64,000 nt of DNA. It comes from a virus (taxonomy: Duplodnaviria > Caudoviricetes). Below, piece after piece: positions 39-51,127 of the stretch. Numbering within the stretch: position 1 is the first letter of the stretch; every line of letters begins with the position of its first letter. The notes under the pieces are model-generated. The model was not told where the DNA came from. It ran no database searches and saw only the letters and a program-made list of their open reading frames with translations. The DNA lies in IMG/VR virus record IMGVR_UViG_3300020578_000020, positions 1 to 64,000 of that record; one strand, written 5' to 3'. The position numbers and the translations under genes are program-made.

Positions 39-455
39 ATGGATGAATTGCTCGAATACATTAAATCGTTTGTTCCATTTAATATTGAAATGATGGGATC
101 ACATGTTAATTCTTGCGATGGGTATGACAAGTTAATGAAACGAAAATATACAATGGATGATCTACAAGAATCCATAAGAAGAGTATTAAGGGAAGAAATA
201 GAAATTCCAACGTATATCAGAAGAAGATATGTTTGTATTGATGAATACATAACAAAATTAGAAAATGGGGAAGAAACTATACCAATAATAATAAGACAAT
301 TGGATTGGTATAGTTACCAAATAATATTAACGGCATATATAAGAAGTAATTGTGGTGATAAAAATGGATATTACGAACCAGAACTACACTCAAAAATTAT
401 GGATGAATTTGGTGATAGATTACATAAATGGTATGAAGAAAATATTAATACATGA
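39..455 (+). CDS. Hypothetical protein, probably 5'-truncated by the window, with internal leader copy (MDDLQESIRRVLREE)
   Basis: Frame open from nt 3; degenerate copy of the 42-bp repeat at ~154-197; stop overlaps next ATG (ATGA). Confidence 0.7.
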   Translation: MDELLEYIKSFVPFNIEMMGSHVNSCDGYDKLMKRKYTMDDLQESIRRVLREEIEIPTYIRRRYVCIDEYITKLENGEETIPIIIRQLDWYSYQIILTAYIRSNCGDKNGYYEPELHSKIMDEFGDRLHKWYEENINT

Positions 456-1306
456 ACTTACAAGAATCCATAAGAAGAATATTAAGGGAAGAAGATTATT
501 CTCCAGCGGGAAAAAAAATCACACCCAATTCAATTATTATTCATAAGTCCAATCCGATGTTTAGAGATAAGATAATGGAACAGGGACTTAAAGTAAGGGC
601 AGGAGAATGTTACAAAGTATATGTTGGTTATGGAGTTAAGTGTAAACCCGCAATATTTGCAACCAACTCAACAAATAAAAGAGCATGGTTTGATTCTACC
701 TACGATGATGATATATGGGAGATCAATACTGAAATGATTCCTGATGTTAAGTGGTATAAAGATAGGCACTTTGAGTCAACAAAAAAACATATTGTAACAT
801 TCCAAGACATACCAAAAGAAGCGATAACTCTAAAATATGAGCGAACAGGAAGTGGTGATGTAAAAAAATGGAACAAAGATTCACCAAACTTATATGAATC
901 TATAAGAAAAATATTAAAGGAAGAAACCGAAAAAAAACCAAGAGTTTTCAATTATAAGAAATATACACTTATTTTATCAAATAATCCGTGTGATATATTC
1001 ACACATTTCAAAGTAGAAAATCTTCACGCATTAAACTATAAAAAATGTTTGGCACATAAGAACACCAAAGACAACGCATATATTGCAGGTCTTACAAATA
1101 TATCACCAAAGACAAAAAAACATTTTCTTTTTTTGAACCTTAATAGATTAGGTAAAGATAAAGAAAAAATGGGTTTAATTATGCACGAAACCATGCACTT
1201 ATCGTTAGAACTTTACAAACACGATGTTGAAAATAAAGAAGAAGAAATAATAACTTTTGCAGAAAACGAAGCTTATAAAATTTATGATATAATACAAAAT
1301 TTATGA
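452..1306 (+). CDS. Leader-bearing two-domain protein: ADP-ribosyltransferase-like domain plus HExxH domain
   Basis: MNLQESIRRILREE leader; IHKS...IMEQGL...AIFAT pattern; second internal leader NLYESIRKILKEE; HETMH motif. Confidence 0.6.
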   Translation: MNLQESIRRILREEDYSPAGKKITPNSIIIHKSNPMFRDKIMEQGLKVRAGECYKVYVGYGVKCKPAIFATNSTNKRAWFDSTYDDDIWEINTEMIPDVKWYKDRHFESTKKHIVTFQDIPKEAITLKYERTGSGDVKKWNKDSPNLYESIRKILKEETEKKPRVFNYKKYTLILSNNPCDIFTHFKVENLHALNYKKCLAHKNTKDNAYIAGLTNISPKTKKHFLFLNLNRLGKDKEKMGLIMHETMHLSLELYKHDVENKEEEIITFAENEAYKIYDIIQNL

Positions 1307-2136
1307 AACTACGAGAAAACATATTAAGAATTAAACAAATCATGGGACTTCTTACGGAAGAAGAACAAGATGACTCTATACCATATGGTATCATAGAGTT
1401 TCCAGGTGGAAACAAAATTTTGGTTGGTGATATGCACCAAACACCATTAAATTTACCTAAAGAATGGGTTCAGAAAATTGTTAGTGTTGCTAATAGTGAA
1501 GGATATTATGGTGAAGGTATTGGACTTAAACATAATCGTGCGGTTACAGAATCAAATTTTTATAATTTGTTAGACCCAAATATGCACATTGATTCTTGGG
1601 ATACAAAATTAGTAGAAAGTGGTGAAGTTCCCAAAGATAAAGAATATGTCTTTTTATATGCTTTATTTTCAAATGTAAAAGAAAATCATAGATTAGAAAA
1701 ATTACTAGATAATGTTGATAAAGGTGATACGATATTTGATGTTCTTTTAAAAACAATACCAGATTGGTCTGCCGATATGGGAAAATTTAATTTAGGTGAA
1801 AGAGAATTAGAAAAATTCCTTAAAGAAATTAGTGAAGGAAATCATAATTTTGTTGAAATGTCAAAACAAGATGCTACTGAAGAAAATTTATCTAATTTTT
1901 TGAATGTTGGTGAGAAATTACAATGGCCAGAAACAGAAGAAAATCCAAATTTATGGCAACAATATCCACATATGGCAGGAAAGTTTGCAAGAATCGCAAC
2001 GACAATAAGAGACCAATTTTTAATAAACGCGGGACCTGGTGTTTATTTTGTTGGTGCGGGACATTTAAAAGACATTATAGATATGCCAGAAGGTAAAGAA
2101 TTAAAATTAAAATTAATAGGAGGGAGTAAAATATGA
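1303..2136 (+). CDS. Leader-bearing hypothetical protein
   Basis: 277 aa; leader MKLRENILRIKQIMGLLTE; ATGA overlap. Confidence 0.75.
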   Translation: MKLRENILRIKQIMGLLTEEEQDDSIPYGIIEFPGGNKILVGDMHQTPLNLPKEWVQKIVSVANSEGYYGEGIGLKHNRAVTESNFYNLLDPNMHIDSWDTKLVESGEVPKDKEYVFLYALFSNVKENHRLEKLLDNVDKGDTIFDVLLKTIPDWSADMGKFNLGERELEKFLKEISEGNHNFVEMSKQDATEENLSNFLNVGEKLQWPETEENPNLWQQYPHMAGKFARIATTIRDQFLINAGPGVYFVGAGHLKDIIDMPEGKELKLKLIGGSKI

Positions 2137-2330
2137 AAAATAACAAATGGAATAGAAAAGATGCTGAATTAGGTAAAGAAAAGTTACTTAAAGAACTCAA
2201 AGAAGAAAAACCAGGGTGGACAAATATTTTCCGTTCTGAAGAAGATTTTGAAAATCTTGAAAAAGACCTAAATAGGTTAATTGATGAAGAAGAATTAAGA
2301 CAAGATAATAATCAAATTTATTACATATGA
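2133..2330 (+). CDS. Small hypothetical protein
   Basis: ATGA-coupled on both sides. Confidence 0.6.
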   Translation: MKNNKWNRKDAELGKEKLLKELKEEKPGWTNIFRSEEDFENLEKDLNRLIDEEELRQDNNQIYYI

Positions 2331-2854
2331 ACCTACAAGAAAACATACAGAGAATTAAACAAATGATGGGATTAGAAGAACAATCTTTTCTTCAACATAT
2401 GTTGGGTAATATAGACCGTAAAAGAAAGGAACAGAATCCTTACAGAGGTAAAGAATACAATCCCGAAAACACGGGAGATTTTTCCAATAGCAAAGTTAAA
2501 GAAGTTGTTTGGAGAGCGGGAGGAATGTACTTAGACCCAAGGTCAGGAGGATTATGGTTTGCTGAGAATAAGGAAGATGTTGAGAAATTTGCTTGGTCTG
2601 TTAGAAATGAAAAAAGAGAAGGGAAACCATATCATATTAATTTACAGAATCCATTTTATTATGATAATTTTTGGAATGGATATTTAAGAGATGCTGAAAG
2701 CCAAGGAAGAGAGGAGTTAATGGATATGTTGGCGGCAGATGGACACGATGGAATAATAATAAATACTGATACTTGGAATGATACTGGTGATGAATATTCC
2801 GTTGAATCAAAACAATATGTAGTTTTTACCCCTGAAAATGTAAAACCCGCATGA
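2327..2854 (+). CDS. Leader-bearing ADP-ribosyltransferase-like (ART-PolyVal-like) protein
   Basis: Leader MNLQENIQRIKQMMGLEE; VVWRAG...GLWFA...INLQNP...GHDGIII...QYVVFTPENVK. Confidence 0.6.
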   Translation: MNLQENIQRIKQMMGLEEQSFLQHMLGNIDRKRKEQNPYRGKEYNPENTGDFSNSKVKEVVWRAGGMYLDPRSGGLWFAENKEDVEKFAWSVRNEKREGKPYHINLQNPFYYDNFWNGYLRDAESQGREELMDMLAADGHDGIIINTDTWNDTGDEYSVESKQYVVFTPENVKPA

Positions 2855-3315
2855 TGAACCTACAAGAATCCATAAGAAGAATATTAAGGGAAGAAACTCG
2901 TTTTAATAAAATGGGGGAAGAAAAATATAAATCTTGTTCTATGTCAGACATTACAAGAATGGAAATTATTGATTCTTTTTTAAGAAAAGTGGAAAATGAT
3001 TCAGAATTTAACACCGAAGAACCAGACTATGATATGTTAATTGATGACTGGAATGGTTATGAAGACCAGGTTTACATACAGAATAAATTAGATGAAGGTA
3101 GAATTATTTTTTATGAAGGGTGGGTTGATAATTGTTGGAAAGCGATAAAAATCAAACCTGAATACAAAGGAATGAATAAAAAAGAAGTCATTGAAAATAT
3201 TATAACAAAAAGGTTTCCAAGAATTGCCGAAGAATTTAATATGGTTATTGATGATTACGGGTATTTCATCAATGAAACCGAATATATAATGTATGTAATA
3301 CTTAAAAAAATATGA
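2854..3315 (+). CDS. Leader-bearing hypothetical protein
   Basis: Exact 42-bp repeat at start (alternative ATG at 2851). Confidence 0.75.
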   Translation: MNLQESIRRILREETRFNKMGEEKYKSCSMSDITRMEIIDSFLRKVENDSEFNTEEPDYDMLIDDWNGYEDQVYIQNKLDEGRIIFYEGWVDNCWKAIKIKPEYKGMNKKEVIENIITKRFPRIAEEFNMVIDDYGYFINETEYIMYVILKKI

Positions 3316-4232
3316 ACCTACAAGAATCCATAAGAAGAATATTAAGGGAAGAATTTACCGAAGATAAGAATCTTTATGGTAATAAACTTAAAGTCTGCTC
3401 AACAAAACCAATGACAGGTTATTATAGAGATGGGTATTGTAGAACAGGAGACGATGACACAGGAAGTCATACGGTGTGTGCGAGAGTTACAGAAGAGTTT
3501 TTAGAGTTTACCAAATCAATGGGAAACAATCTTGATATGTTAGAACCTGGTGACAAATGGTGTTTATGTGCAAAAAGGTGGGAAGAAGCAAATAATGAGG
3601 GAGTGGCTCCTAAAATGATTAAAAGTTCAACAAACATCAAAACATTAGACATAATAGATAATGATGAACAAGAACTTGATGAATACGCAAGAACACTAAA
3701 AAATGCAAGAAGACAAGGTTATGGATTAAGATTTTCTAAGTCAGCGATAAAAGCAAACCCTCAAAGATTTAGAAAGTATACAAGAGACACAATGAATGAA
3801 TCTGACCCCAAGACAGGAACGGGAAAAAAACCTGAAGGTTCTGGTAGAAGATTGTATACCGATGAAAATCCAAATGATACAGTATCTGTAAAGTTTAGAA
3901 CAAAACAAGATATTGTAGATACACTAAACAAAGATAGTTTTAAATCTAAACCTCATAAAAGACAATCACAAATTATCAATCTTATCCATCAACGAATAAG
4001 AGCTGCATATCAGAACGCAAAAGATCCTGAAACAAAAAAAAGATTGAAAACTGGGTACGATTATATTCAGTCCGTTAAAGAAAAATCAAAAGAAAAAACT
4101 ATTAGGTTACAGAAACAAGAACAGAATGAAGCAGAACTAACAGAAAAGTGTTGGCCAGGTTATACTCAAAAAGGAATGAAGACAATGTTTGGTAAGAGAT
4201 ATCCTAATTGTGTAAAGAAGACAAAGAAATGA
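3312..4232 (+). CDS. Leader-bearing multi-module protein containing a DUF2237-like domain
   Basis: CSTKPMTGYYRDGYCRTG...HTVCA...PGDKWCLCAKRW; further modules after LDE, MNE, LTE; C-terminal KCWPGY...PNCV. Confidence 0.7.
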   Translation: MNLQESIRRILREEFTEDKNLYGNKLKVCSTKPMTGYYRDGYCRTGDDDTGSHTVCARVTEEFLEFTKSMGNNLDMLEPGDKWCLCAKRWEEANNEGVAPKMIKSSTNIKTLDIIDNDEQELDEYARTLKNARRQGYGLRFSKSAIKANPQRFRKYTRDTMNESDPKTGTGKKPEGSGRRLYTDENPNDTVSVKFRTKQDIVDTLNKDSFKSKPHKRQSQIINLIHQRIRAAYQNAKDPETKKRLKTGYDYIQSVKEKSKEKTIRLQKQEQNEAELTEKCWPGYTQKGMKTMFGKRYPNCVKKTKK

Positions 4233-4555
4233 ACCTACAAGAATCCATAAGAAGAATATTAAGGGAAGAAGTTAATACAAAAACATATATCCTACGAAGA
4301 TATGGTTTCGATGAACTTGAGGAAATTTTTAATCAAAAATTATCTAATCAGTCCAAAAACTTTGAACACTATAAAAATAAATCATTAGATTATTTTACAA
4401 ATGCAGTTGTAATAACAACGGTTGAAGCTATACTTGAAGATTTAACTGATGGATGGAATGAAGATTCACCAGTATCAGAAGAAAGTTTGTGTGATTTTAT
4501 AAAAAACTCATTTAGAGATGAAATTATAAAAAAATATTTAGATATTGTAATATGA
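4229..4555 (+). CDS. Leader-bearing hypothetical protein
   Basis: Start moved to ATG of exact 42-bp repeat (track start 4208). Confidence 0.75.
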   Translation: MNLQESIRRILREEVNTKTYILRRYGFDELEEIFNQKLSNQSKNFEHYKNKSLDYFTNAVVITTVEAILEDLTDGWNEDSPVSEESLCDFIKNSFRDEIIKKYLDIVI

Positions 4556-4986
4556 ACCTACAAGAATCCATAAGAAGAATATTAAGGGAAGAAAATAAAA
4601 AGTTTGGCTTACTTAGAGTGATAGAAGAGGATGGCTTATTTCAAGTTATGCAAGACACAGGACTATCTATGGGACAAATCATTATGAAGTATGATAATCT
4701 ACCAAGAGAAGTATTTTAGAGGTTCATTAAGGATTTTATTAAACACGATGGATATCTTAACCCAAATGGATTTTACAAGTTAGGATATGAAGTAGAAATA
4801 TCAAATAACAAATATGTTGATACATTTTATTTGTATGGTGATTCTGTAACGGTAGAAATAAAGGAACTTGATTATGTTTATTATAATTATAGTGGTGGTA
4901 TAGAAGATTTAGAAACTTTAACCGACGAAGAAATTTTTAATATTGTCGATGACATAACAAGTTGGTATAGTCAAAACAATTTGTAA
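4552..4986 (+). pseudogene. Leader-bearing ORF with in-frame TAG at 4717-4719
   Basis: Exact 42-bp repeat; frame continues 88 codons past the TAG to TAA 4984-4986; absent from ORF track. Confidence 0.7.
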
Positions 4987-8545: not shown

Positions 8546-8845
8546 ATGAAAAAAGTTATAAGACTTACAGAATCAGATCTCGCTCGTATTGTTAAACAAG
8601 TGATTGCCGAATCTAAAAAGAATCCAAGTAAATCTGAGATATTAAAAATGTCAAAAGACGAACTAAAAGATGTTTATGGTGAATTGGAAGTTAAAGGTGA
8701 ATACCATAGAAATGAAGGAACATTCCACCACTTCAAAAGAACTGCAATCGGAGATGTTGTTTGTAGTTTTAGAACTGATGATACAACACCATCAGGATTA
8801 AAAAGAAATACTCAAGGAATTAAAGTAAAAAATTTAGATTTTTAA
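8546..8845 (+). CDS. RLTESDL-leader hypothetical protein
   Basis: MKKVIRLTESDLARIVKQVIAE; TATTTAT upstream. Confidence 0.8.
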   Translation: MKKVIRLTESDLARIVKQVIAESKKNPSKSEILKMSKDELKDVYGELEVKGEYHRNEGTFHHFKRTAIGDVVCSFRTDDTTPSGLKRNTQGIKVKNLDF

Positions 8846-8848: not shown

Positions 8849-9415
8849 ATGAAAAAAGTAATAAGACTTACAGAATCAGATTTAACCCGTATCGTTAGGC
8901 GAGTTATAAAAGAAAATGAAAAATCAAAAGGTTTTATAAATGAATTTTGGCCGTTCACTAAAAGAAAAAAACAACTAGATCCAGAACCTGAGGAAGAAGT
9001 GTATAAATCAACGGAACCCCCAAGAGAAATTGTTATAGACTTAGAACAAGTTCCAGGGTTTTTTGATTTACAATGGGATTCTAGACCAGATGAAACTAAA
9101 GTTTCGTTAAGAGGAGACGGCAACCCAGTTTATTTAGGATTTAAAGAAACCTTTGCTTTTGATAATGGTCGCCCACTTGAATTTGGAAAAAAATATTATG
9201 TTCAGTATATTAAAGATACAAATTCAATAAAAGTTTATGGAGATTGTTGCTATCATATCGGTGGAGATAGTAGGCGATTTATTCATGATAGAAGAATGGA
9301 ATACCCAAAATTTCCACAGCATGAACTTGCGAATTTGCAAAAATATGATAAGTCCCCTTTTGAAAAAGGGGATAATGTGAGGGGTATAGATATACTTGAC
9401 GTAAGAAATTATTAA
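8849..9415 (+). CDS. RLTESDL-leader hypothetical protein
   Basis: MKKVIRLTESDLTRIVRRVIKE. Confidence 0.8.
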   Translation: MKKVIRLTESDLTRIVRRVIKENEKSKGFINEFWPFTKRKKQLDPEPEEEVYKSTEPPREIVIDLEQVPGFFDLQWDSRPDETKVSLRGDGNPVYLGFKETFAFDNGRPLEFGKKYYVQYIKDTNSIKVYGDCCYHIGGDSRRFIHDRRMEYPKFPQHELANLQKYDKSPFEKGDNVRGIDILDVRNY

Positions 9416-9437: not shown

Positions 9438-10055
9438 ATGAAAAAAATAATCAGACTTACAGAAAGAGATTTAACCCGTATCGTTAAACGAGTTATAAAA
9501 GAAAATGAGGATGAATATAATTATGACAACACAAAAAATAATCCCGATACCATTTTTGTAAAATTCACTTTTGGGGGTCTCACTAGATTTTATAAACAAT
9601 ATATTAAACCTACCACCGATTATTATCGTGATACTTTTGTTTACTATGGTTCTTGGCCGGAACTTGACCCTGAGTCCTCAAAAGGATTGGAAATGAAGGA
9701 CAATTATTTTTATTTATTATTTAAACTTTATAACCCTGAAGATTCAGAAAAAAATAATAATTATAATAAACAGGGTTATCCACCTGCGACTTTATATTTC
9801 ATAAAATATAATAAAGAGGCCGGGGAGATAAACATTTATTCTCTGAATGCTGATGATAAAATCCAACAAAATTTTCAAGCCAATTATTCTTACGAATTTG
9901 TAGGAAATAGACTGAATGCGGATTGGAATACCTATTGTAGATTTAATAAAAATGGAAAAGAAAGAGTCGTTGATATTGGTTCAACTGACCATCGTGGATA
10001 TTTTAAAATTGTTGATACGTCAGGTTCGGAAGAATCTTTATCCGAAAAATATTAA
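9438..10055 (+). CDS. RLTESDL-leader hypothetical protein
   Basis: MKKIIRLTERDLTRIVKRVIKE. Confidence 0.8.
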   Translation: MKKIIRLTERDLTRIVKRVIKENEDEYNYDNTKNNPDTIFVKFTFGGLTRFYKQYIKPTTDYYRDTFVYYGSWPELDPESSKGLEMKDNYFYLLFKLYNPEDSEKNNNYNKQGYPPATLYFIKYNKEAGEINIYSLNADDKIQQNFQANYSYEFVGNRLNADWNTYCRFNKNGKERVVDIGSTDHRGYFKIVDTSGSEESLSEKY

Positions 10056-10159: not shown

Positions 10160-10591
10160 GTGAAAAAAATTATAAGACTTACAGAATCTGATTTAGATCG
10201 TATTGTTAAACGAGTTTTAATAGAAAGTATTGATTATAATGAAATCACAGAAGAATTTTACGAAATTGAAGATATGTTGATTGAAATGGCAGAAAAGGGT
10301 GTATTTGTTTTACATGTTACTAATGACAGTAATGGTACTACAGATACATATGGTGATGATGAATCTTTTTCTAAAACTAAAAATGAGGTGTATGTGAGAA
10401 TTAACCAACCTACGTATATGATAATAGTTCCAAGAGGATCTGATAAGTATTTTGGTGGTAATTTTACAGATTTATTAACAAGACAGTTTACAAATAAATT
10501 TCCTAAAATGAATTTTTCAGGGACTTATGGATATTCTATTGAAGTTAGACCCAAGAAATTTATGGAGCAAGGTTTCTACGGTGAACGATAA
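10160..10591 (+). CDS. RLTESDL-leader hypothetical protein
   Basis: GTG start; KKIIRLTESDLDRIVKRVLIE. Confidence 0.8.
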   Translation: MKKIIRLTESDLDRIVKRVLIESIDYNEITEEFYEIEDMLIEMAEKGVFVLHVTNDSNGTTDTYGDDESFSKTKNEVYVRINQPTYMIIVPRGSDKYFGGNFTDLLTRQFTNKFPKMNFSGTYGYSIEVRPKKFMEQGFYGER

Positions 10592-10763: not shown

Positions 10764-11084
10764 ATGAAACTAGATAGATTTAACCAACTTTTGAATGCTT
10801 CTCTTGGAAAGATAAAACCCTTAATCACAGAAAGTGAAGATTTAAGTATAAGTAAACCAAAAACTCTCAAAGAGTTTTTAAATAATTGTAAATCAAAAAG
10901 AGGTTCATTTAGAACTTTTACAGATGGAACTCATCTGAAATGTAACAGTATTGGTTTTATTAGTGATAAAAATCCATACACTCCTGGGGGATCAAAAAAA
11001 ACAGGAGTTGTTGGATCTTGGAAATCTGAAAATAATGTGGTGACCTTGACTTCAACTTTATATGGTGTAAAAACTTTAGAATAA
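10764..11084 (+). CDS. RFxQLLES-leader hypothetical protein
   Basis: MKLDRFNQLLNASLGKIKPLITE, same family as 14994 and 19192. Confidence 0.75.
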   Translation: MKLDRFNQLLNASLGKIKPLITESEDLSISKPKTLKEFLNNCKSKRGSFRTFTDGTHLKCNSIGFISDKNPYTPGGSKKTGVVGSWKSENNVVTLTSTLYGVKTLE

Positions 11085-11131: not shown

Positions 11132-12454
11132 ATGAAAAAAATAATTAGACTAACAGAATCAGATTTAACAAGGATTGTTAAACAAGCAATTAGAGAATAC
11201 GCTCCTTATGAAAAATCAATTGATGATTTAGAAAAAGATTTTGAACGAAAACACAGATTCTTTGGCTTATCCGACGAAGATGTAGATGAGTTGATTGACC
11301 GTCGACATGCTTTAGACAAACCAGGCTCTCAACTTTGGGCACCTGAAACAGAAGACGAATTTAAAGATGAATTTGGATACGATTACTCTGCGTATAAAAA
11401 TCATCAAGATAAAATTAATAAACTAACAACTTATTATAAAGAAAAAATTATTTACGATTTTTTACAAAATATAAATTTAACTTCTGAAGAAAATGAAAAA
11501 CTTGAATTTTTGGATGAAAAATTAAGTAATCCAAATTTGGGCTCAGATAAAATAGAAAGATATAAAAACCTCAAAAATCAATTGTATTTGGGACACCTAA
11601 ACAAGTATCTCAACTCATTAGATAAAAAATATTTTGGTCAATATTTTATTTCAAATAATTACAATTATTTTAAGGATAAAATTAAAGATTTTGCATATAA
11701 TAATAATTTCCCATCAAAACCAGTTCCACCAACCTCATCAGAAGAACCAAATTTTCTTCAAAGAACCGCAAAGAAAGTTAAAAACTATTTTGGGTTATCT
11801 GAAAATAGAAGACTTACAGAATCAGATTTAACCCGTATCGTTAAACTAGTTATTGCTGAATCAGAACAGACAGAAAAAACTCCTGAATATACGGTACAAA
11901 GTGGAGAAATAATTTTGAAAGGAGTAAAAAATAAAGGTACTTCAGATGTAGATTTAAAAATTTTTCAAGGAACTAAATTTGTGAAGGAAGGTAAAAAGAT
12001 GGTTGCTAATACAAAATATCAATTTACGGATAGTTTCGGTAATGTAGTTATTGGGGTAGGAGCGACCCCCAAAATGAGATCGGGCAAAACGTACACAGGT
12101 AAAGTTACTTATGGATGTGACACTGGAAGATTCACTGTAAATATAAGAACTGATTTAAATTTTTATGCCGGAGATTTCCAAGCCCGTGCCGTATCATTAG
12201 CTAAAGAATTACAAAAGAATTGTAAAATTAAAGTCGATGATAATCCCGTAGTTGGATCCCACCCCTGTGATCTAAATAAACAAGGCACGAGAATTGCTAA
12301 AGGAAAATCTTTTGATTATTGTTTCAATCAAGACAAATATTATTTCAAAGGAACTAAAGGTGATTATTTAACAAAATACAAAGATTGGACTGAGGCAAGT
12401 GGAACGGGATTAGAGGCAATAAAATCTAAAATCTTCCCAGACATAGGAGCATAG
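11132..12454 (+). CDS. Fused double RLTESDL-leader protein
   Basis: Leader at N-terminus and again at ~11808 (RRLTESDLTRIVKLVIAE). Confidence 0.8.
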   Translation: MKKIIRLTESDLTRIVKQAIREYAPYEKSIDDLEKDFERKHRFFGLSDEDVDELIDRRHALDKPGSQLWAPETEDEFKDEFGYDYSAYKNHQDKINKLTTYYKEKIIYDFLQNINLTSEENEKLEFLDEKLSNPNLGSDKIERYKNLKNQLYLGHLNKYLNSLDKKYFGQYFISNNYNYFKDKIKDFAYNNNFPSKPVPPTSSEEPNFLQRTAKKVKNYFGLSENRRLTESDLTRIVKLVIAESEQTEKTPEYTVQSGEIILKGVKNKGTSDVDLKIFQGTKFVKEGKKMVANTKYQFTDSFGNVVIGVGATPKMRSGKTYTGKVTYGCDTGRFTVNIRTDLNFYAGDFQARAVSLAKELQKNCKIKVDDNPVVGSHPCDLNKQGTRIAKGKSFDYCFNQDKYYFKGTKGDYLTKYKDWTEASGTGLEAIKSKIFPDIGA

Positions 12455-13169: not shown

Positions 13170-13420
13170 GTGAAAAGAATAATAAGACTTACAGAATCAG
13201 ATTTTATCGTATTGTAAAACAGACCATTAGTGAAAATGTTAATAATATGGCGGATGATTTGAGGGGTGTATCAAAAAGGCTCAATCTTTCACTGGATGAC
13301 TACATTAGTGATATGAAAAGAGGTGATTCAAGAAAAATGGAAGATTCAAAAGAAATTGTAAAAAAAAATATAAGAAGAATGGAAGACATTCTAGATAAAT
13401 TAAAAAGAAAGTTAAAATGA
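13170..13420 (+). pseudogene. Frameshifted RLTESDL-leader gene
   Basis: GTG KRIIRLTESD, then 1-nt loss near 13203; other frame reads RIVKQTISE...KRKLK to the ATGA overlap at 13417. Confidence 0.65.
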
Positions 13421-14082
13421 AAAAAATAATAAGACTTACTGAAAATGATTTAGCTCGAATTGTTAAACGAGTAATCAATGAACAAGAAACAAATGAATTT
13501 TTTAAAAGAAAAAAAGAATTGGTACTTAAATCAATCATGGAAAACATTAATGAGCATGGCTTGCACCGTGCCGTACAACAACGATTAATGGAGAACAAAG
13601 AAAAAGATACAGTACTTCAATATATTGCTATTAGTAATACAGATTATCCTCGTAGAAAATGTAAAACAAATCCCTCCCAAGAACTTTGTGGTAGTAAAGG
13701 TAAAGTAATTTATGACTACATAGCTAAAGGAATGTACGATGGTGATTTTTTCGGTCTTGGCACCGACGAAGAAGCAATTAAGGGTGCAATTTATGCGGTT
13801 TCTGATAAAAAAACTCTTGATGAATTACAAGCAGAATGTAAGAAAAAACAAAAGAAAGGTTTAATGTGTTGGTTACAAACTGAAATGCCTGTAAATACCT
13901 ACACATCCTCGGGCTCCGAATATGAAGAACCTCAAACTATATTTCAATATGCGCATCACTATCTTAAAGGTGAAGCAGGCACTAACAGACCTGTTATAAA
14001 AGAAATACTTAGACATTTGCGTCAATTTGATCCTTCAATCACAGCTTGTGACAAAAACGTGGATACTTTGGGGTTGGATTAG
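13417..14082 (+). CDS. RLTESDL-leader protein with annexin-like GxGTDE motif
   Basis: Leader; KGM...GLGTDEEAIKGAI. Confidence 0.65.
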   Translation: MKKIIRLTENDLARIVKRVINEQETNEFFKRKKELVLKSIMENINEHGLHRAVQQRLMENKEKDTVLQYIAISNTDYPRRKCKTNPSQELCGSKGKVIYDYIAKGMYDGDFFGLGTDEEAIKGAIYAVSDKKTLDELQAECKKKQKKGLMCWLQTEMPVNTYTSSGSEYEEPQTIFQYAHHYLKGEAGTNRPVIKEILRHLRQFDPSITACDKNVDTLGLD

Positions 14083-14393
14083 TTAATTAAAGACATGAAG
14101 CGTCGAAGAAAACACATTTCACTTTTCGAATACTACTCAGATATGCCTAACCAATTTAGCGTACAAGAGCTTATTCCTACATTTGGCCGGAGTAACCTAA
14201 AAATGTTAAACAAATAAAATATTTATTTAATTAACCCCCCCATTCCTAATAAGAGTGGGCTTTTTATTTTCCACAGAAACAGGACCCTGATTTTAAATAA
14301 ACTCTCATCTGTCAAAATAAATTTTTGGGAAAAATTTGGAACTTATTTTCCACACTTATAAAGAACACTATATTTATTACTAAAGAATACATT

Positions 14394-14798: not shown

Positions 14799-14993
14799 TA
14801 TTATTTGGTTATTTCTAAAAATTTTCCCTTTGGGTTGACAATACTTCCTCTAATAAAGAGGGGGTTTTTTATTTTCCACAGAAACAGGACCCTGATTTTA
14901 AAAAGAACCCAAATATCAAAAAAGAATTTCTGGAAAAATTTGGAAACTATTTCCCAATATAGAATATCGGTATATTTATAATAAAACAAAATT

Positions 14994-35788: not shown

Positions 35789-35819
35789 AAACGTTTAACT
35801 TACATAATAAAAGGAATGT

Positions 35820-35856: not shown

Positions 35857-35862
35857 ATATTG

Positions 35863-36607: not shown

Positions 36608-36626
36608 TAGGTAAAAACATTACAAT

Positions 36627-37154
36627 ATGAAAAAAATTATCAGACTTACAGAATCAGACCTTACTCGTATTGTCAAACGAGTGATCAAAGAAAATGAGGA
36701 GGGTTCTATCTCTGAAATTTACAAAGTAATTACAGATGAAGAAATTGAAAATTTTAAAATTAATTTATTAGAATTACTTAATAAACATATTTTAGGAAGA
36801 ATGAATCGAGAAAATTATTTAAATCATTACGATATCCAACACAGTTATAATCTTTGGAGAAAAAAGAACATGTCTAAATATACACGAAGACCATCAAAAA
36901 GATTTGATGATGAAATTGAATATGACGAACTTTCAAAAAATAAACAAGAAGAGTTGATTGATTTAAGAAATACAAACATTAAAAAAATTGGTAAACTTTT
37001 TGAAGAATTAATTGAACATTATAAAAACAAATATGATTTAATTGAAGAAGATTCAGGAATAAAATCAGGAATTGCGGACGTTCTTGATGTTTTAAATTTC
37101 GAATACACAAGTTATTTAGAACATATAATGTATCCAAACAAGTTCAAAGATTAA
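36627..37154 (+). CDS. RLTESDL-leader hypothetical protein
   Basis: MKKIIRLTESDLTRIVKRVIKE. Confidence 0.8.
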   Translation: MKKIIRLTESDLTRIVKRVIKENEEGSISEIYKVITDEEIENFKINLLELLNKHILGRMNRENYLNHYDIQHSYNLWRKKNMSKYTRRPSKRFDDEIEYDELSKNKQEELIDLRNTNIKKIGKLFEELIEHYKNKYDLIEEDSGIKSGIADVLDVLNFEYTSYLEHIMYPNKFKD

Positions 37155-37338
37155 GAAAAATACTTACACAATAATCATCACCCCGTATTGCCAAATGATA
37201 CCCTATTAAAAAAAGAGGGGGTTTTTTATTCCAAAAAAATTTGGCCAATTGAAATGAAGTCCATATATTTGTAGAAACCTCATCAATTGATGTGGTTTTT
37301 TTATTTTATTGATATATTTATTTATAAAGAATTTACTT

Positions 37339-38217
37339 ATGAAAAAAATCGCAAAAATTTTAATCGCACTCGGAATTGGTCTTATCGTAGCAGGAACAAT
37401 TCTTTGGAAATGTAATCAACCTAATCCAACCCCACCTCCACCAGCGCCAACAGTTAGTGTAGACACAACAAAATACACAGACGTTGTACTTATCAATAAT
37501 TCTAAGCTTGATTCAGTAGAAGTGTTTATTACACTAGAACATGGTAATAGTATTGTAGGTAAATTTGGTATGACTAAAGCCAATATTTATGATTCCATTG
37601 CTTGTTATTGTCCCCCCGAAAATTTACCTTGTAAAGGTTCGTTTTGGGCTAAAAAAGGTGTACCATACCACTTAGGTGACACTAATGTACTCAATGGTGT
37701 AATGGTAACATTTGGTGCATGGAATCGTGAATGTCAAGGAGCTATCAACGCCGGCTATCCACATGGCTTAAATAACTTTGAGTTTAATGTTAATACATGG
37801 TGGCAAGAAGGAAAGGTAACGGGTAATGGTGAATCTTTTGATATTACATTGGTGGACGGTTTGCACTGTATATTGAGACAAACAGCAACATCTACCGGCC
37901 CAAGAAATAGCAATGGACTAAATCCAAACTTTAGTGCATTTTGGGACTTTGGGCCAAAGGATAAATATGGAAAACTTTTACCTTTTACTACTTCAACAAA
38001 TGGGCCAACGTTTGCAACTTGTATCAACATACCTGCAGTTTACCCATACGGATGTGACCACGGCAATTATTCACAAAAACCTCCAACACCAATATGTTTT
38101 CCAATAAAGTGTTCTGATAAGTGGGGTGTTAATGCTTCGCAAACAAATCGTCAAGGACAAGGTGGACGAGTTACTTGTGAGTTTTTAGGTTTCATTGGGG
38201 AACCTGCAAATAAATAA
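37339..38217 (+). CDS. Membrane-anchored Cys-rich protein, thaumatin-like motif
   Basis: N-terminal TM, Pro linker, FEF...SFDITLVDG, AVYPYGCD. Confidence 0.55.
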   Translation: MKKIAKILIALGIGLIVAGTILWKCNQPNPTPPPPAPTVSVDTTKYTDVVLINNSKLDSVEVFITLEHGNSIVGKFGMTKANIYDSIACYCPPENLPCKGSFWAKKGVPYHLGDTNVLNGVMVTFGAWNRECQGAINAGYPHGLNNFEFNVNTWWQEGKVTGNGESFDITLVDGLHCILRQTATSTGPRNSNGLNPNFSAFWDFGPKDKYGKLLPFTTSTNGPTFATCINIPAVYPYGCDHGNYSQKPPTPICFPIKCSDKWGVNASQTNRQGQGGRVTCEFLGFIGEPANK

Positions 38218-38247
38218 AACAAATTAGCAGTAAAGAACTGCCCGATT

Positions 38248-38589
38248 ATAGAAAAAATAATTAGACTTACAGAATCAGACCTTGCTCGTATTGTCAAACG
38301 AGTGATCAAAGAAAATGAAATGTCCGACGACTATTATGATATGGACATTAAGGGTGAGGATGAAAACTTGGATATGGACCCAATATCACAATTCACACCT
38401 GAAGAATTGAATAAAATACACGATACGGTGTATATGTTGTCACAACCTGAGTTTTTGGATAAGGATGAAGCGGAATCATACCTTTTTTATACCGTAGCCA
38501 AAGAGGATGAGAATCTATACAATTCACTTGTCGATTGGTTGAAAAGAAATGGACTTGATAACCCTAGACTTCGACACGGGTATAGATAA
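38248..38589 (+). CDS. RLTESDL-leader protein lacking canonical start (ATA), possible pseudogene
   Basis: ATA GAA AAA ATA ATT AGA CTT ACA GAA TCA GAC in frame with track ORF 38302. Confidence 0.6.
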   Translation: MEKIIRLTESDLARIVKRVIKENEMSDDYYDMDIKGEDENLDMDPISQFTPEELNKIHDTVYMLSQPEFLDKDEAESYLFYTVAKEDENLYNSLVDWLKRNGLDNPRLRHGYR

Positions 38590-38689
38590 CTTAATTAACC
38601 CCCACCTCATCCGTGGGGTTTTTTATTTCAAAAAAGATTTGGAGAATTGAAATGTTTTTTATATCTTCGTAAAATAAACAAAGATAGAT

Positions 38690-39214
38690 ATGGAAAACTT
38701 GATAAACATTTTGAAGAAAGAAACTGAAACATTAAAAGTTCAGTATGTTGCTAAAACTAAAGAGTGGGCAAAAGACCAGTTTGATGCAATTGTGGTTAAA
38801 TTAAAATGGTCCGAACTTCAATGGTGTGACTATTTTGGATTGACACCTGGAGTTTATAATCAAGGAACTTCTTTGGAATTTAAATCATTTCCAAGAGGTT
38901 TCTACAACACCAAACAAAGTCGTGAGTATTCTAACTTCAAAGACAAAGCGGCTAAGATCAAAAAAATGGGTGTTGAGGAATATATGTTGGCTGAAGAGAA
39001 AAAAGCTGTGTTACACTACGAAGGATCTATCGTAAAACTTGCAAACCGAATTGAGAAAAAAGGTTTGAACGTAGATAAACTTGTTGTTGAAACTTCTCAC
39101 ATCGGTGTTAATATCAACACTACATTGACTGATGGTGAGAAAACTGTAAGAGCATTTACGATCATCGCATCAGGTGAGATCCAAAGACCACACTACAGAT
39201 ATTTGGTAAAATAA
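38690..39214 (+). CDS. Hypothetical early-type protein
   Basis: TATCTTCG box upstream; C-terminal IIASGEIQRPHYRYLVK. Confidence 0.75.
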   Translation: MENLINILKKETETLKVQYVAKTKEWAKDQFDAIVVKLKWSELQWCDYFGLTPGVYNQGTSLEFKSFPRGFYNTKQSREYSNFKDKAAKIKKMGVEEYMLAEEKKAVLHYEGSIVKLANRIEKKGLNVDKLVVETSHIGVNINTTLTDGEKTVRAFTIIASGEIQRPHYRYLVK

Positions 39215-39275
39215 TATCAAAAAAGATTTGCAATAACAGAAAAGTTTGAATATATTTGTAGAAACAATAAAACAT

Positions 39276-39614
39276 ATGGGAAGCTACATTTACACTTACA
39301 AGAAAAAATTAGATAAGAAAGTAATTCTTGACGGACAAGAAGTTAAGGTTGGTGAAGCTACTTTTTTATGTAAACAAGATTGGTCAGGAAATTACACACC
39401 ACAAGAAAAACGTGAAATGACAAGAGCCGCCTGTTTACTTGAACAAGACCAACCCAACTATATTATGTTTGGTGAATCAGTTTATAAAAATAATAAACGT
39501 GGTCTTTGGAGTGATGCTAGTGGTTTTTGGACTGGAATTGATTACAAAAAAGACTATGTTGGTAATTTAGAAAAAGTTGGTAGAAAATATTTTATAAAGT
39601 GTTTGGTAGATTAA
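39276..39614 (+). CDS. Hypothetical early-type protein
   Basis: TATATTTG box with upstream TTTG; start moved to ATG 39276. Confidence 0.7.
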   Translation: MGSYIYTYKKKLDKKVILDGQEVKVGEATFLCKQDWSGNYTPQEKREMTRAACLLEQDQPNYIMFGESVYKNNKRGLWSDASGFWTGIDYKKDYVGNLEKVGRKYFIKCLVD

Positions 39615-39808
39615 AATAAAGTTCTTATATTTGTAAAACAAACGGGGGTGAGACAATGTGATGGTGGACTCACCCCCACACAAAAGGTAAAAGTTCTTTG
39701 ATTTAAAATATTGTGGTTGTAAGAAAGGGGAAACTCGTAAAGTTCATTAACCAGTTGGCTCAAGATGGTGAAACGAGAGTGTGAGTCAACTACTAAACTA
39801 CAAAAAAT

Positions 39809-39882
39809 GGTGTGGTAGCTCAGTAGGTAGAGCAAAGATTTGAAACTTCTTGTGCCGATGGTTCGATTCCATTCCCATACCA
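39809..39882 (+). tRNA. tRNA-Phe(GAA)
   Basis: GGTGTGG/CCATACC; loop TTGAAAC; TTCGATT. Confidence 0.85.
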
Positions 39883-39889
39883 CAAATAT

Positions 39890-39963
<74 letters not shown>

Positions 39964-40037
39964 CTAAAGGGTGAATAGGTGGAAGGGCCTTTCCTGAAAG
40001 ACGGCTTGCTAGGCCCGTGTTCACCCTCATGAATTAT

Positions 40038-40114
40038 ACTGATGTAGCTCAATTGGTGAGAGCAGGACGCTTATATCGTCAAGGTTATGGGTTCAAGTCC
40101 CCTCTTCAGTACCA
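40038..40114 (+). tRNA. tRNA-Ile(TAT), CCA encoded
   Basis: ACTGATG/CTTCAGT; GACG-CTTATAT-CGTC; TTCAAGT. Confidence 0.8.
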
Positions 40115-40119
40115 TAATT

Positions 40120-40191
40120 GGTCCCATCGTCTAACGGTTAGGACATATGGTTTTCATCCATAAAATCGGGTTTCGATTACCCGTGGGACTA
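40120..40191 (+). tRNA. tRNA-Glu(TTC)
   Basis: GGTCCCA/TGGGACT; TATGG-TTTTCAT-CCATA; T-stem closed by T-A instead of G-C. Confidence 0.85.
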
Positions 40192-40216
40192 CAAACTTGT
40201 TGAAATAAAATAGGAA

Positions 40217-40299
40217 GGTCAGGAGTGTAAAGAGACATGGTGTTGAATCCGTCTGTTGAAGATGGTTACTCATTGTAGGTTCGAATCCTATCCTGACTT
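40217..40299 (+). ncRNA. Aberrant tRNA-like RNA
   Basis: GGTCAGG/CCTGACT; GTAGG-TTCGAAT-CCTAT; CCGTC-TGTTGAA-GATGG; no normal D-arm. Confidence 0.5.
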
Positions 40300-40411
40300 C
40301 ACAAGTGCTCACCACGCTACCCATCAGAATAGCGCCCCAAGGTGAGCTAGTGTAAACGCTTAATAGAACGAAGGCCAAGTTCAGAGCAGGGAGCGGGTCC
40401 TGCAAACATTT

Positions 40412-40485
40412 GGTCCATTGGTGTAATAGTAACATTTGTCCCTGTCACGGACAAGCCCTCGGAGCGTAACCGGGATGGACCGCCA
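40412..40485 (+). tRNA. tRNA-Asp(GTC), atypical T-loop, CCA encoded
   Basis: GGTCCAT/ATGGACC; TGTCC-CTGTCAC-GGACA; T-loop AGCGTAA. Confidence 0.8.
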
Positions 40486-41429: not shown

Positions 41430-41966
41430 TTATTTTCTAAATACGGATGCTAACTCTGATTGTGAAGCCTGACCACAAAAATTTTCTTTTAAGAAGTCTA
41501 AAGTGTTTCCATATCGTGAATTTATATTTCTTACAAGATCAGACTTGAAAAAAACTACTTTCAAAGTATCATAAAAGGTGTAAAAATCCGAAGTTGAGCA
41601 ATCAAAATATATTGTTTTAGGTATTGATTGACCAGCAATGGCCTTAGCTGACTCGACACCTGACATATCACCTGTATCTTTCTTAGCGCCAAATTTTGAA
41701 CCATCTTTTCTAAAATAAAGTAACCCTGGTATAGTACATTGTGTTGGGCTTGTTTTTGTAATTTTTGCCCCTCCTTTAATAATTAAATTTACATTTGGGA
41801 GTCTAGATTCAACAGGTTGATTTCTATTATCAACAACTTTGCCAATAGGACTGTCTTCGATTCCAAAACCTAAATCCATAGGAATAGTCATATTCTCACT
41901 TTCATTTATAACTCGTCTAACGATTCTAGCCAAGTCATTTTCTGTTAATCTAACAATTCTTTTCAT
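41430..41966 (-). CDS. RLTESDL-leader hypothetical protein
   Basis: MKRIVRLTENDLARIVRRVINE; TATTTAT upstream on minus strand. Confidence 0.8.
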   Translation of the reverse strand: MKRIVRLTENDLARIVRRVINESENMTIPMDLGFGIEDSPIGKVVDNRNQPVESRLPNVNLIIKGGAKITKTSPTQCTIPGLLYFRKDGSKFGAKKDTGDMSGVESAKAIAGQSIPKTIYFDCSTSDFYTFYDTLKVVFFKSDLVRNINSRYGNTLDFLKENFCGQASQSELASVFRK

Positions 41967-48424: not shown

Positions 48425-48426
48425 AA

Positions 48427-49514: not shown

Positions 49515-49637
49515 ATGAAAAGAGTCATAAGACTTACAGAATCAGATTTAACTCGTATTGTAAGACGAGTTATCAACGAAAGACAACAATTGACCGAACA
49601 AGTAGTGAAAAATTTAGTGGTACCAACTCAAAAATAA
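49515..49637 (+). CDS. Near-empty RLTESDL leader cassette (40 aa)
   Basis: TATTTAT then MKRVIRLTESDLTRIVRRVINERQQLTEQVVKNLVVPTQK*. Confidence 0.6.
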   Translation: MKRVIRLTESDLTRIVRRVINERQQLTEQVVKNLVVPTQK

Positions 49638-49672
49638 AAAACCCCAATCCAAAACAGATCAGGATTTGAGTT

Positions 49673-50095
49673 TTAAGAGGATTTAATAATATTAAACTTA
49701 TTTGTTTTTTTTACGGTGGTCATTCCCACAGAATTCCAATACCATAGAACATTATCCTGTTTTTGACTTATGTGAATAATTAAACCGTAATCAAACCCTT
49801 CTTCCAAAATTTTCACAATCAACAATCCATCATTTGTTTTTATGGTTTTTATTGGTAATACACTTAAAAATTCATCATTTACATAATAAGAGGATGTTTC
49901 ATCACTCAAGTCAATTACATAAGTTGTTTTTGTTGACTCAGGATCACGTAAAATATCAGGACTCATCAAGACCGAATCTAAAGTTGTGCTTCTAAATGAA
50001 ACCATTTCTTGTCTTTCAAACATCTCAATTACTATTTTTTGAGAAAAAGAAAAAGAGAAGAAGAATAAAAGAATTGATAAGAAATAAGTTTTCAT
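49673..50095 (-). CDS. Secreted hypothetical protein
   Basis: Signal ending SFSQ; TACCTTTG box upstream on minus strand. Confidence 0.7.
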   Translation of the reverse strand: MKTYFLSILLFFFSFSFSQKIVIEMFERQEMVSFRSTTLDSVLMSPDILRDPESTKTTYVIDLSDETSSYYVNDEFLSVLPIKTIKTNDGLLIVKILEEGFDYGLIIHISQKQDNVLWYWNSVGMTTVKKTNKFNIIKSS

Positions 50096-50200
50096 AATAA
50101 TTGTGTTTTAAATTGATAATAAAACAAAGGTATATAAAAAATTAAATAAAAAAAAACTTTTTATTTTTTTTTGGTGTATTTATAATTAAATAAAAAACAT

Positions 50201-51127
50201 ATGAAAAAATTTTTAATATCAGAATCAGAAAAAAACCGAATTTTAGAAATGCACAAAAGAGCCGTTAGAAAAGAATGGGTTCTTAATGAAGCTTCTGGCG
50301 ATGATGATGGTAGCGGTAAAGAATTAAAAAATGCTGGAATTAGAAGTATATCACCTGCAGATACTACCGATTCTAATACAGGCGGATTAAAGGCGGCTGG
50401 AGGGGCGACTTTCGTCCAACTTGTAGATATAAATGGGATTACACTTTATTATAACTGTATAAGAGACCCAAGAGCAAGTAAAAAAGAGGTCGATGTCAGC
50501 CCTACAATTTTCAAAACAGGGTCCCTAATGGATCAAAATTACAATGATGTAAGAAACAACACAATATTGCATGGAAATTGGGAACAAATACTACAAAAAA
50601 ATTGTAGTTCTGCGTATTCATTTGTTAATAATTGGAGAGCTGAAAATTGTCCAAAACTGAACGCTAAAACATATTGGGATTATAACAATCAATGTTCTAT
50701 TTATATGAATGCTCAAGCGGCTGAAAAACAACAACAAGCTCAAGCAACTGCTGACGCAGATGCTCAAAAAGTAAAAGATGCTGAGGCGGCTAAAGAGAAG
50801 GCCGATATGGATGCTAGAACCGCAGCTGCAAATGCCAAAAACTTAGAGGCAAAAACTTCGGCAGCTTCATTTTCGGAGCCTTTCAATAAACTTTATAGTG
50901 AGTTATTTACATTAGTTTCTTCATCTCCTATGGGTAGTCAACAAGAAATAGAGGATAAAATTAATCAATTAAATACTATGTATAACGACCCAAATCTAAA
51001 AACAGGTAGACTTGAAGCTAAGGATAATAATTCAATCGCGACAACAATAAAAAATACACCAAAATTATTACAACAAGCTAAAGCCCAATATCCAGGAATA
51101 ACCGCAACATTTGGAAAGTCTCTTTAG
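50201..51127 (+). CDS. EKxRIL-leader protein with Ala-rich coiled coil
   Basis: MKKFLISESEKNRILEMHK...VLNE. Confidence 0.8.
   Translation: MKKFLISESEKNRILEMHKRAVRKEWVLNEASGDDDGSGKELKNAGIRSISPADTTDSNTGGLKAAGGATFVQLVDINGITLYYNCIRDPRASKKEVDVSPTIFKTGSLMDQNYNDVRNNTILHGNWEQILQKNCSSAYSFVNNWRAENCPKLNAKTYWDYNNQCSIYMNAQAAEKQQQAQATADADAQKVKDAEAAKEKADMDARTAAANAKNLEAKTSAASFSEPFNKLYSELFTLVSSSPMGSQQEIEDKINQLNTMYNDPNLKTGRLEAKDNNSIATTIKNTPKLLQQAKAQYPGITATFGKSL

Follow-up and report, generated by a model that had tools for sequence, protein, structure and literature searches.

Interchangeable N-terminal leader peptides on unrelated phage proteins, possibly acting as capsid-targeting propeptides

The virus record IMGVR_UViG_3300020578_000020 (Duplodnaviria; Caudoviricetes) encodes many proteins whose bodies are unrelated but which begin with one of about seven kinds of short, conserved leader peptide. 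These leaders were analyzed in the first 64,000 nucleotides (nt) of the record, here called the window, and in related viral genomes. The leaders are modular in architecture, are conserved up to a closing glutamate, are widely spread among viral sequences, co-occur with an S77 prohead protease, and share an upstream promoter-like motif with head genes. We favor the reading, with a probability of roughly 0.55, that they are T4-like capsid-targeting propeptides cut by the S77 protease, expanded into a set of several tags with polyprotein forms, in which the leader also serves as a joint for payload exchange. The shared leaders themselves had been noticed in a preliminary description of the window; that observation is confirmed, and its T4-style interpretation is partly supported.

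A small set of leaders on many unrelated proteins

A census was made of 892 open reading frames (ORFs) from this record (147 ORFs) and two complete relatives, G002 (296 kb, 386 ORFs) and G005 (292 kb, 359 ORFs). By strict patterns for about 7 leader types, 31/147 ORFs are tagged here, 42/386 in G002 and 54/359 in G005; as a control for chance, shuffled N-termini match the family patterns in 0-1 of the 892 ORFs. The 127 tagged ORFs fall into 98 payload groups. When the N-termini of all 892 ORFs were clustered, one single-linkage group of 139 ORFs (108 payload groups) brought together types A, B, C and F and additional forms, MKIIITESQYKxLxE prominent among them. This abundant form had been overlooked in the preliminary description, which counted about six families, all of which were found. 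Tagged genes form islands, such as the 37 that lie at 220-260 kb in G005.

The proteins behind the leaders are diverse. Leader C is carried by 133 proteins that form 87 payload clusters and leader A by 104 proteins that form 34; with homologous payloads also found behind different leader types, the claim of a few interchangeable leaders on many unrelated payloads holds. Payloads are 55-416 amino acids (aa) long, with enzyme domains that include DUF2237 and ART-like. The payload of the ORF at 2327 matches ART-PolyVal at E 2e-6, below the Pfam cut-off. For the first payload of ORF 452-1306, the protein Atlas points to ART-like clusters (Arr-ms, PARP; 0.93, 133-134 shared features), which serves as a lead only. 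Pfam searches of 30 leader-bearing proteins returned no leader family and only DUF2237, the sub-threshold ART-PolyVal and chance-level matches, and PHROGs searches of 10 tagged proteins returned no family spanning a leader. Homologues are labelled only 'hypothetical protein', with two odd automatic names as the exceptions. P0004 and P0005, both close homologues of ORF 36627-37154, are named 'dTDP-D-glucose 4,6-dehydratase', which looks like an annotation error. Because nearly all payloads lack a known family, the term 'effector arsenal' used in the preliminary description is best taken as interpretation.

Payloads change leaders, and leaders also occur inside proteins. For the conserved structural-module payload SSRYMFFSNLEQMKRQC, the leader is of type A in this genome and in both G002 and G005 but of type C in locus L043, and the payload behind the A leader of ORF 39-455 stands behind a G-type leader in L049. 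Two-leader proteins include P0071-P0074, P0089 and P0092, with the layout leader-payload-leader-payload in P0071-P0074; P0073 has the same first payload as ORF 11132-12454 and a different second payload behind the internal leader. In five loci the first payload of ORF 452-1306 forms a tagged gene by itself (137-143 aa); in L164 it is fused, and in G005 it is a segment of a 531-aa protein (G5_244713). An HExxH domain stands behind the internal leader both in ORF 452-1306 and in the 531-aa protein. Of 130 unique leader-A pattern matches, 25 do not have Met at the first leader residue, and most of these lie 99-360 residues inside longer frames.

Leader copies in the window

Copies were located by a six-frame regular-expression scan of the window, and similarity was measured by all-versus-all BLASTP of its 147 ORFs.

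153-197 (pattern match at 162), plus strand: type A leader (MDDLQESIRRVLREE) inside ORF 39-455
452-493, plus strand: type A leader MNLQESIRRILREE, ORF 452-1306
884-925 (pattern match at 896), plus strand: internal type A leader (PNLYESIRKILKEE); separates the two payload domains in ORF 452-1306
1303-1359, plus strand: type B leader MKLRENILRIKQIMGLLTE
2327-2380, plus strand: type B leader MNLQENIQRIKQMMGLEE; payload matches ART-PolyVal below the curated cut-off
2854-2895, plus strand: type A leader
3312-3353, plus strand: type A leader; payload DUF2237
4229-4270, plus strand: type A leader
4552-4593, plus strand: type A leader
8546-8611, plus strand: type C leader (22 aa, MKKVIRLTESDLARIVKQVIAE)
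8849-8914, plus strand: type C leader
9438-9503, plus strand: type C leader
10160-10225, plus strand: type C leader with a GTG start
10764-10832, plus strand: type E leader MKLDRFNQLLNASLGKIKPLITE
11132-11197, plus strand: type C leader of the two-payload ORF 11132-12454
11795-11860 (pattern match at 11813), plus strand: internal type C leader at residue ~227, separating the two payloads of ORF 11132-12454
13170-13252, plus strand: frameshifted remnant of a type C leader
13417-13482, plus strand: type C leader
14394-14450, plus strand: type D leader MNRSYSKIRHIQNSNLLLE; promoter and leader form a 90-nt DNA repeat
14994-15062, plus strand: type E leader
15500-15556, plus strand: type D leader; 90-nt cassette 99% identical to 14366-14455
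16109-16204, plus strand: type F leader (MKKNIFLITEEEKRRILGLHE... up to YLLEE)
17611-17676, plus strand: divergent type C leader
18820-18891, plus strand: weak B-related leader (MRINEELNQIKYLLEYKRGQEIDE), weak similarity
19192-19260, plus strand: type E leader
20067-20132, plus strand: divergent type C leader
26199-26261, minus strand: C/A-like leader MKKRMLNEYQINKIVKDILSE
26317-26349, plus strand: A-like leader MRILKNIVREE
28151-28198, minus strand: G-type leader MDILLTESQYKKLLVE
28313-28375, plus strand: weak F-like N-terminus
30007-30045, plus strand: A-like leader MKINKIIRRVLLE
36266-36331, plus strand: type C leader
36627-36692, plus strand: type C leader, consensus form
38248-38313, plus strand: type C leader without ATG (ATA start), possibly decayed or with an unusual start
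41901-41966, minus strand: type C leader
49515-49580, plus strand: type C leader, a remnant with an open frame of only 44 aa
50201-50290, plus strand: type F leader (30 aa, VLNE end)

The scan recovered every type A (452, 2854, 3312, 4229, 4552), type B (1303, 2327), type D (14394, 15500) and type E (10764, 14994, 19192) site that had been claimed. For type C, 13 N-terminal sites were found, but 13170, 38248 and 49515 are the defective copies listed above; these decayed copies indicate leader turnover. The type F sites at 16109, 50201 and 28313 are present, the last only as a weak member, and the B-related copy at 18820 is likewise weak. The F leader, given earlier as 13 residues, measures ~30 aa. 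The earlier list was also incomplete, missing the copies at 162, 896 and 11813 and the A-like copies at 25731 (minus strand), 26317 and 30007. In ORF 39-455, the segment upstream of the leader matches the interior of a 492-aa polyprotein elsewhere.

Similarity between leader ORFs was said to stop at the end of the leader. This is usually the case, as BLASTP alignments are mostly 14-25 residues long at 64-100% identity (for example, 92% over 25 aa for 9438 versus 36627 and 100% over 14 aa for 452 versus 4229). However, four pairs are weakly similar further on: 8849/9438 (29.5% over 149 aa), 39/4229 (31% over 103 aa), 16109/50201 (22.5% over 275 aa) and 36266/36627 (25.5% over 141 aa). The F-tagged ORF 16109-16930 also contains six 21-nt tandem repeats (16191-16358) that encode Thr/Pro-rich TTATTPG units and an exact 57-nt tandem duplication (16558-16671).

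Conservation of the leader and its closing glutamate

Conservation ends abruptly at a glutamate. Over positions 1-22 of 133 unique leader-C proteins, information is 3-4.3 bits at 20 positions and about 2 bits at the variable positions 13 and 21; after position 22 it falls to 1.9, 1.2, 1.0 and 0.7 bits and then to noise. With patterns that left both columns free, E9 and E22 were Glu in 130/130 and never Asp, and position 20 is I, V or L in 131/133. In the 104 leader-A proteins conservation spans positions 1-14 and falls off at position 15; E13 (L11-x-E13) is present in 110/113 and is Asp in none. The hydrophobic residue of the closing motif, two positions ahead of the Glu, is one of I, V, L and M. 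For the remaining types the first position was scored as I/L/V/M/F/Y, which is wider than the L/I of T4. By this measure a hydrophobic-x-Glu lies 2-5 residues past the conserved core in 12/12 type B leaders, 3-4 residues past it in 6/6 type E, within 7 residues in 3/3 type D, within 12 residues in 9/9 type F, and 5-6 residues past it in 23/33 type G.

Most leader types also open with L/I-x-Glu, often followed by Ser (LTES, LQES, ITES, LLES). Hydrophobic-x-Glu-Ser opens leaders C, A, G and E as well as the capsid protein, which starts MGALLES. In all three genomes it is densest in the core ORF between the portal and protease genes and in the scaffold (4 in 236 aa of the core ORF here and 6 in 242 aa in G005; 6 in 546 aa of the scaffold). 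From its sequence distribution, this motif may be a preferred site of the clade's protease.

Leader C is conserved as a peptide, since 54% of synonymous and 17% of non-synonymous sites differ between copies (0.54 versus 0.17). A single base is all that distinguishes the five type A copies at 452-4593 over their 42 nt; these copies and the 90-nt leader D repeat look like recent local spread. A-type leaders align weakly (E 0.02-40) to leader C positions 12-23 when a leader-C hidden Markov model (HMM) is run with --max against the 892 ORFs.

Distribution of the leaders

Profile scanning, which had been proposed as a check, found 9-16 copies per genome of the clade. Among 1.84 billion representative proteins, the leader-C profile has 8,847 matches at E<=0.001 and 1,499 at E<=1e-10; in the best 150 proteins the match starts within the first 13 residues in 142 and is internal in 8. 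In viral contigs, the leader-C pattern occurs in at least 590 stretches (497 confirmed, 80 loci kept) and leader A gave 162 pattern matches (55 confirmed). The G-type pattern gave 366 matches, 0 of them confirmed by tblastn with the divergent window copy as query. Cellular genomes scanned with a 50-aa stretch as query gave only 2 confirmed leader loci among 185,579 species genomes, both on 3-4 kb contigs of metagenome-assembled genomes (MAGs). One leader-A locus (L143) comes from an 8.3-kb contig that carries a giant-virus MAG (GVMAG) label but is probably a phage fragment binned in error.

A full-text literature search for four of the leader motifs found no paper, and the literature on capsid targeting in jumbo phages contained no description of these leaders that we could find; supplements lay outside both searches. 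So far as these searches show, the scale, conservation and modular grammar of the leader system are previously undescribed.

Head genes and the TATTTAT motif

A T4-type head module lies at the end of the window and continues past it in the same record. PHROGs assignments agree with Pfam for this module.

60120-61898, plus strand: T4-type large terminase (TerL), with TATTTAT upstream as for the leader genes
62711-64000, plus strand, continuing past the window end: T4-type portal (gp20), Portal_T4 E 1.7e-68
genome 64563-65273: core ORF between portal and protease
genome 66028-66756, just past the window: Peptidase_S77 gp21-type prohead protease, E 4.6e-23, 82 bits against a cut-off of 27
genome 67094-68734 (L001:3094-4734), just past the window: acidic scaffold-like protein
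genome 68764-70701 (L001:4764-6701), just past the window: Gp23 major capsid protein, E 1.1e-72

The terminase has distant tblastn matches, at 25-28% identity among the top matches listed. The Gp23-type capsid protein is 645 aa long, and its alignment to T4 gp23 covers only about residues 73-106 and 334-619; ~200-300 residues have no counterpart in T4 gp23 and may form an inserted domain. Its first ~45 residues are almost identical across the three genomes compared. The scaffold-like protein contains about eleven tandem MDDEDMEM copies, with an acidic, variable middle and strongly conserved ends. Its N-terminal helix ('EEIRQLVKESLQE') looks leader-like by eye, but the idea that the leader mimics this helix was rejected, as the scaffold is outside the top 110 leader-C HMM matches listed. 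A complex prediction for scaffold plus leader C scored 0.00 against a mark of 0.32 (alignments of 3 and 91 rows, no controls), which speaks neither for nor against an interaction.

The S77 protease was found in 4/5 and then 5/5 large leader-bearing records; of those that are 90% or more complete, 8/9 have it. The remaining one, G004, is a near-copy of G010, shifted and truncated so that the head module of G010 lies outside the G004 contig. The protease protein was not found in the three incomplete records G004, G008 and G009. A complete 269-kb relative, G013, has two separate Peptidase_S77 matches.

TATTTAT stands within 60 nt upstream of 18/30 listed leader starts, of 46/147 ORFs overall and of 2.9% of random positions. 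The motif is thus of a general promoter-like kind, with no specificity for leaders. It lies 10-45 nt before a start codon in 47/125 occurrences and precedes, besides the leader genes, those for TerL, portal, core ORF, protease, scaffold and tail. G002 has it upstream of the whole head module, several long ORFs, a sheath-like ORF and a helicase-like gene; it was not found there upstream of DNA polymerase-, ThyA-, RNR- and FEN-type nuclease-like genes, identified from their N-terminal sequences and not by family search. This distribution suggests that TATTTAT could be a late-type promoter, and we presume a likeness to the TATAAATA of T4. Two different leader genes are preceded by repeated intergenic elements (14251-14352 and 14856-14956, 96% and 72% identical), and a similar TTTGGAA..TATTTCCC element precedes 8546, 10160 and 14994; such elements may be part of a mobile promoter cassette.

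Source genome, neighboring genes and host

The window is the start of a single 106,306-bp record of ~30% G+C, rated 36% complete by CheckV. The record is taken to be a fragment of a ~290-kb jumbo phage because the relatives found through the leaders are records of 241-309 kb, several of them rated 96-100% complete. Two chaperone-type genes adjoin the head genes:

51770-53812, minus strand: ClpB-like AAA+ ATPase
53984-55852: DnaK, full-length

A J-domain-like N-terminus is present in G002 and G005. At 21756-24206 the phage encodes an 816-aa protein like the surface proteins of Bacteroidota hosts, in which SprB repeats and a PKD-like domain are combined with a CHU_C domain for type IX secretion sorting. 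The CHU_C domain and SprB repeats of this protein suggest a Bacteroidota host. A paper on freshwater-metagenome 'moraphages' describes phages that infect Bacteroidota and encode DnaK/DnaJ, a Clp ATPase and a prohead core protease (PMC12619734). The chaperone, Clp, protease and host traits found here fit that lineage; in the text of that paper the term 'N-terminal' is absent. Eight tRNA genes lie at 33182-40485 of the window, five of them clustered at 39809-40485, and ARAGORN reports an odd tRNA with a two-base anticodon at 34950-35021.

Interpretation and alternatives

We infer targeting, cleavage, packaging and injection of the tagged proteins. The leader would form an amphipathic helix of 14-30 residues that brings its payload into the prohead scaffolding core. 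The gp21-type S77 protease would then cut behind the invariant Glu of the closing hydrophobic-x-Glu, possibly with a second cut behind the upstream L/I-x-Glu, and the freed payload would leave the head with the DNA at infection. Where a leader stands between domains of a longer protein, that protein would be a polyprotein with the leader as its cleavable joint, and the leader, often with its promoter, may be the joint at which payloads are exchanged, fused and split. The T4 analogy drawn in the preliminary description is circumstantially backed by the head module, the hydrophobic-x-Glu motif, the glutamate that is never aspartate, and the promoter motif common to leader and head genes.

Several observations weigh against this reading. 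The tagged set of 42-54 proteins per genome far exceeds what T4 packages, and it includes very long payloads (up to 646 aa) and payloads with membrane-like segments (15500, 20067). Unlike T4 internal proteins, the payloads are not basic: median net charge per 100 aa is +1.1, -3.2 and -0.3 for tagged against -1.1, -2.2 and -1.6 for untagged ORFs. As a short and common motif, hydrophobic-x-Glu is expected by chance at 18.6% of random positions within 6 residues and 31% within 12, and 7/33 G-type leaders have none within 9 residues of the core. The conserved Glu could equally be a helix or contact residue instead of a cleavage site. For the capsid protein itself there are five candidate maturation sites, E44, E51 and E60 among them, and the start of T4 gp23* aligns near residue 45-46. 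The leaders are longer than the 10-residue T4 signal and resemble MKTYQEFIAE by eye only in QE-hydrophobic-I, the peptides being too short for statistics. Co-occurrence with S77 is weak evidence because all these genomes belong to one clade and may share both by descent. Finally, cultured phages do not show the leaders: no match was found in 50,697 deposited phage records at E<=10, and Flavobacterium phage immuto, the nearest cultured S77-bearing relative, has 0 at E<=1 with the profiles that find the clade copies.

The main alternative, which we consider unlikely, is that the leader is a permanent, uncleaved docking or oligomerization helix that gathers its proteins at some shared partner outside the prohead core, with the phage DnaK/DnaJ/ClpB chaperones, a host structure or a phage-made compartment as candidates. 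Its amphipathic, heptad-like pattern would suit such a role, as would the chaperone genes beside the head module and the J-domain-like N-termini in the relatives; the number of tagged proteins, with long and membrane-like payloads among them, is unusual for capsid cargo, and internal copies are compatible with plain domain fusions. Left unexplained would be the end of conservation precisely at a Glu that Asp never replaces, the hydrophobic-x-Glu found within 12 residues of the core in most or all copies of each type, and the presence of TATTTAT at both leader and morphogenesis genes but not at DNA polymerase-, ThyA- and RNR-like genes. Less probable still is that the leaders are joints or propeptides cut by S77 or another peptidase for cytoplasmic polyprotein maturation or timed activation. 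Internal leaders are frequent, with two- and three-leader proteins, the hydrophobic-x-Glu motifs are present, and HExxH domains stand behind internal leaders in ORF 452-1306 and G5_244713; yet these domains are on few tagged proteins, S77 proteases are known to work inside proheads (PMC9026906), and most tagged genes encode single small proteins for which a non-targeting 22-aa propeptide would have no evident use.

A third possibility places the repeats at the DNA level, as cassettes of promoter, translation start region or recombination sites with a functionless peptide. The nearly identical type A copies, the 90-nt promoter-leader D repeat at 99% identity and payload swaps exactly at leaders (P0073 versus ORF 11132-12454) would be expected of it, but the excess of synonymous over non-synonymous change in leader C, near-invariance of the peptide in thousands of proteins, and internal copies without promoters make it highly improbable. 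Since selection acts on the peptide and internal copies have no promoters, recombination at leaders is likely a consequence, not a cause, of peptide conservation. Ordinary paralogy, or a secretion or RiPP-type leader (of ribosomally synthesized and post-translationally modified peptides), is scarcely credible, and we reject these readings on the strength of the 87 payload clusters and the near-absence from cellular genomes. A few pairs are indeed weakly similar past the leader, but the unrelated clusters among leader-C proteins contradict paralogy, which the preliminary description had named as a possible refutation. A conserved leader with a variable core is also the RiPP pattern; however, RiPP precursors are short, with a small core and adjacent modifying enzymes, whereas the payloads here span 55-416 aa and include enzyme domains. 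Sec and lipoprotein signals have a hydrophobic h-region after a short basic n-region, whereas the leaders are charged amphipathic helices, and the true signal peptides of the same genomes cluster separately.

More tentatively, a clade of Bacteroidota jumbo phages might use interchangeable, removable tags to load up to ~15% of the proteome into the capsid for co-injection, as single proteins or polyproteins, with the tag as a recombination joint. If so, the ~8,800 representative proteins with a leader-C profile match would amount to a list of injected phage effectors that can be read directly from sequence. Injected proteins, such as anti-defense factors or host-takeover enzymes, act before any phage gene is expressed and are usually found by virion proteomics of cultured phages; if the leaders are capsid-targeting propeptides, thousands of candidates from uncultivated jumbo phages would be recognizable from sequence. 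The evolution of the arsenal could be traced through swapping, fusion and fission at the tags, the S77 specificity of the clade would be tied to hydrophobic-x-Glu, often followed by Ser, and the tags would be tools for packaging foreign proteins into Bacteroidota phages. Should the T4 analogy fail, the leader would still be an addressing signal not described before, a 22-residue peptide that stays near-invariant across thousands of unrelated viral proteins.

Comparison with known systems

The closest parallel is T4. The T4 literature states that the gp21 cleavage motif is L/I-X-Glu and that Asp there blocks processing (PMC9026906); that the 10-residue capsid-targeting sequence (CTS) MKTYQEFIAE sends internal proteins to the core and is then cut off, and that the internal proteins of T-even phages are diverse with only the CTS conserved (PMC9026906; PMC3012670; PMC8442874); and that Alt, an ADP-ribosyltransferase, is packaged with gp21-cut propeptides (PMC9026906). 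In both systems otherwise unrelated proteins share a short N-terminal peptide: in T4 the CTS of IPI-III and the gp21-cut propeptides of Alt, gp67 and gp68, here the leaders. The leader ends in hydrophobic-x-Glu, comparable to the gp21 motif in a test of sequence only, and the phage that encodes it likewise has a gp21-family S77 protease together with a gp20 portal and gp23 capsid. In both, the set of payloads differs from one related phage to another, and the tagged ART-PolyVal-like payload (sub-cut-off) parallels packaged Alt. The systems differ in length of leader (14-30 aa here versus 10 in T4), in number of leader types (about 7 versus one) and in tagged genes per genome (31-54 versus a handful), and internal polyprotein copies, non-basic payloads and a Bacteroidota host set the present, putative targeting system apart.

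In the giant phages phiKZ, 201phi2-1 and SPN3US, a gp21-related prohead protease cleaves dozens of head proteins, inner-body and ejection proteins among them, behind a Glu, and many of these are ejected into the host (PMC9026906, PMC5694885, PMC10052503). The motif described there for phiKZ-type jumbo phages is S/A-x-Glu, whereas the leaders here have I, L, V or M in place of S/A; the passages and abstracts consulted report no common conserved leader, whereas here the proposed propeptide itself is a strictly conserved module.

Two further systems share single features with the leaders. Polyvalent proteins, attributed to Iyer and co-workers in 2017, are reportedly arrays of conflict domains (ART, metallopeptidase) of phages and conjugative elements that are thought to enter the host with the DNA. 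The ART-PolyVal-like payload and the HExxH domain behind an internal leader recall them, but here such domains mostly come as small genes of their own, or as short polyproteins in which a conserved leader forms the link. The cargo-loading peptides of encapsulins are usually C-terminal and uncleaved, and bind the shell protein with no protease step. They too are short conserved peptides that address diverse cargo into an HK97-fold shell; the leaders, in contrast, are N-terminal, and their removal by a protease is proposed.

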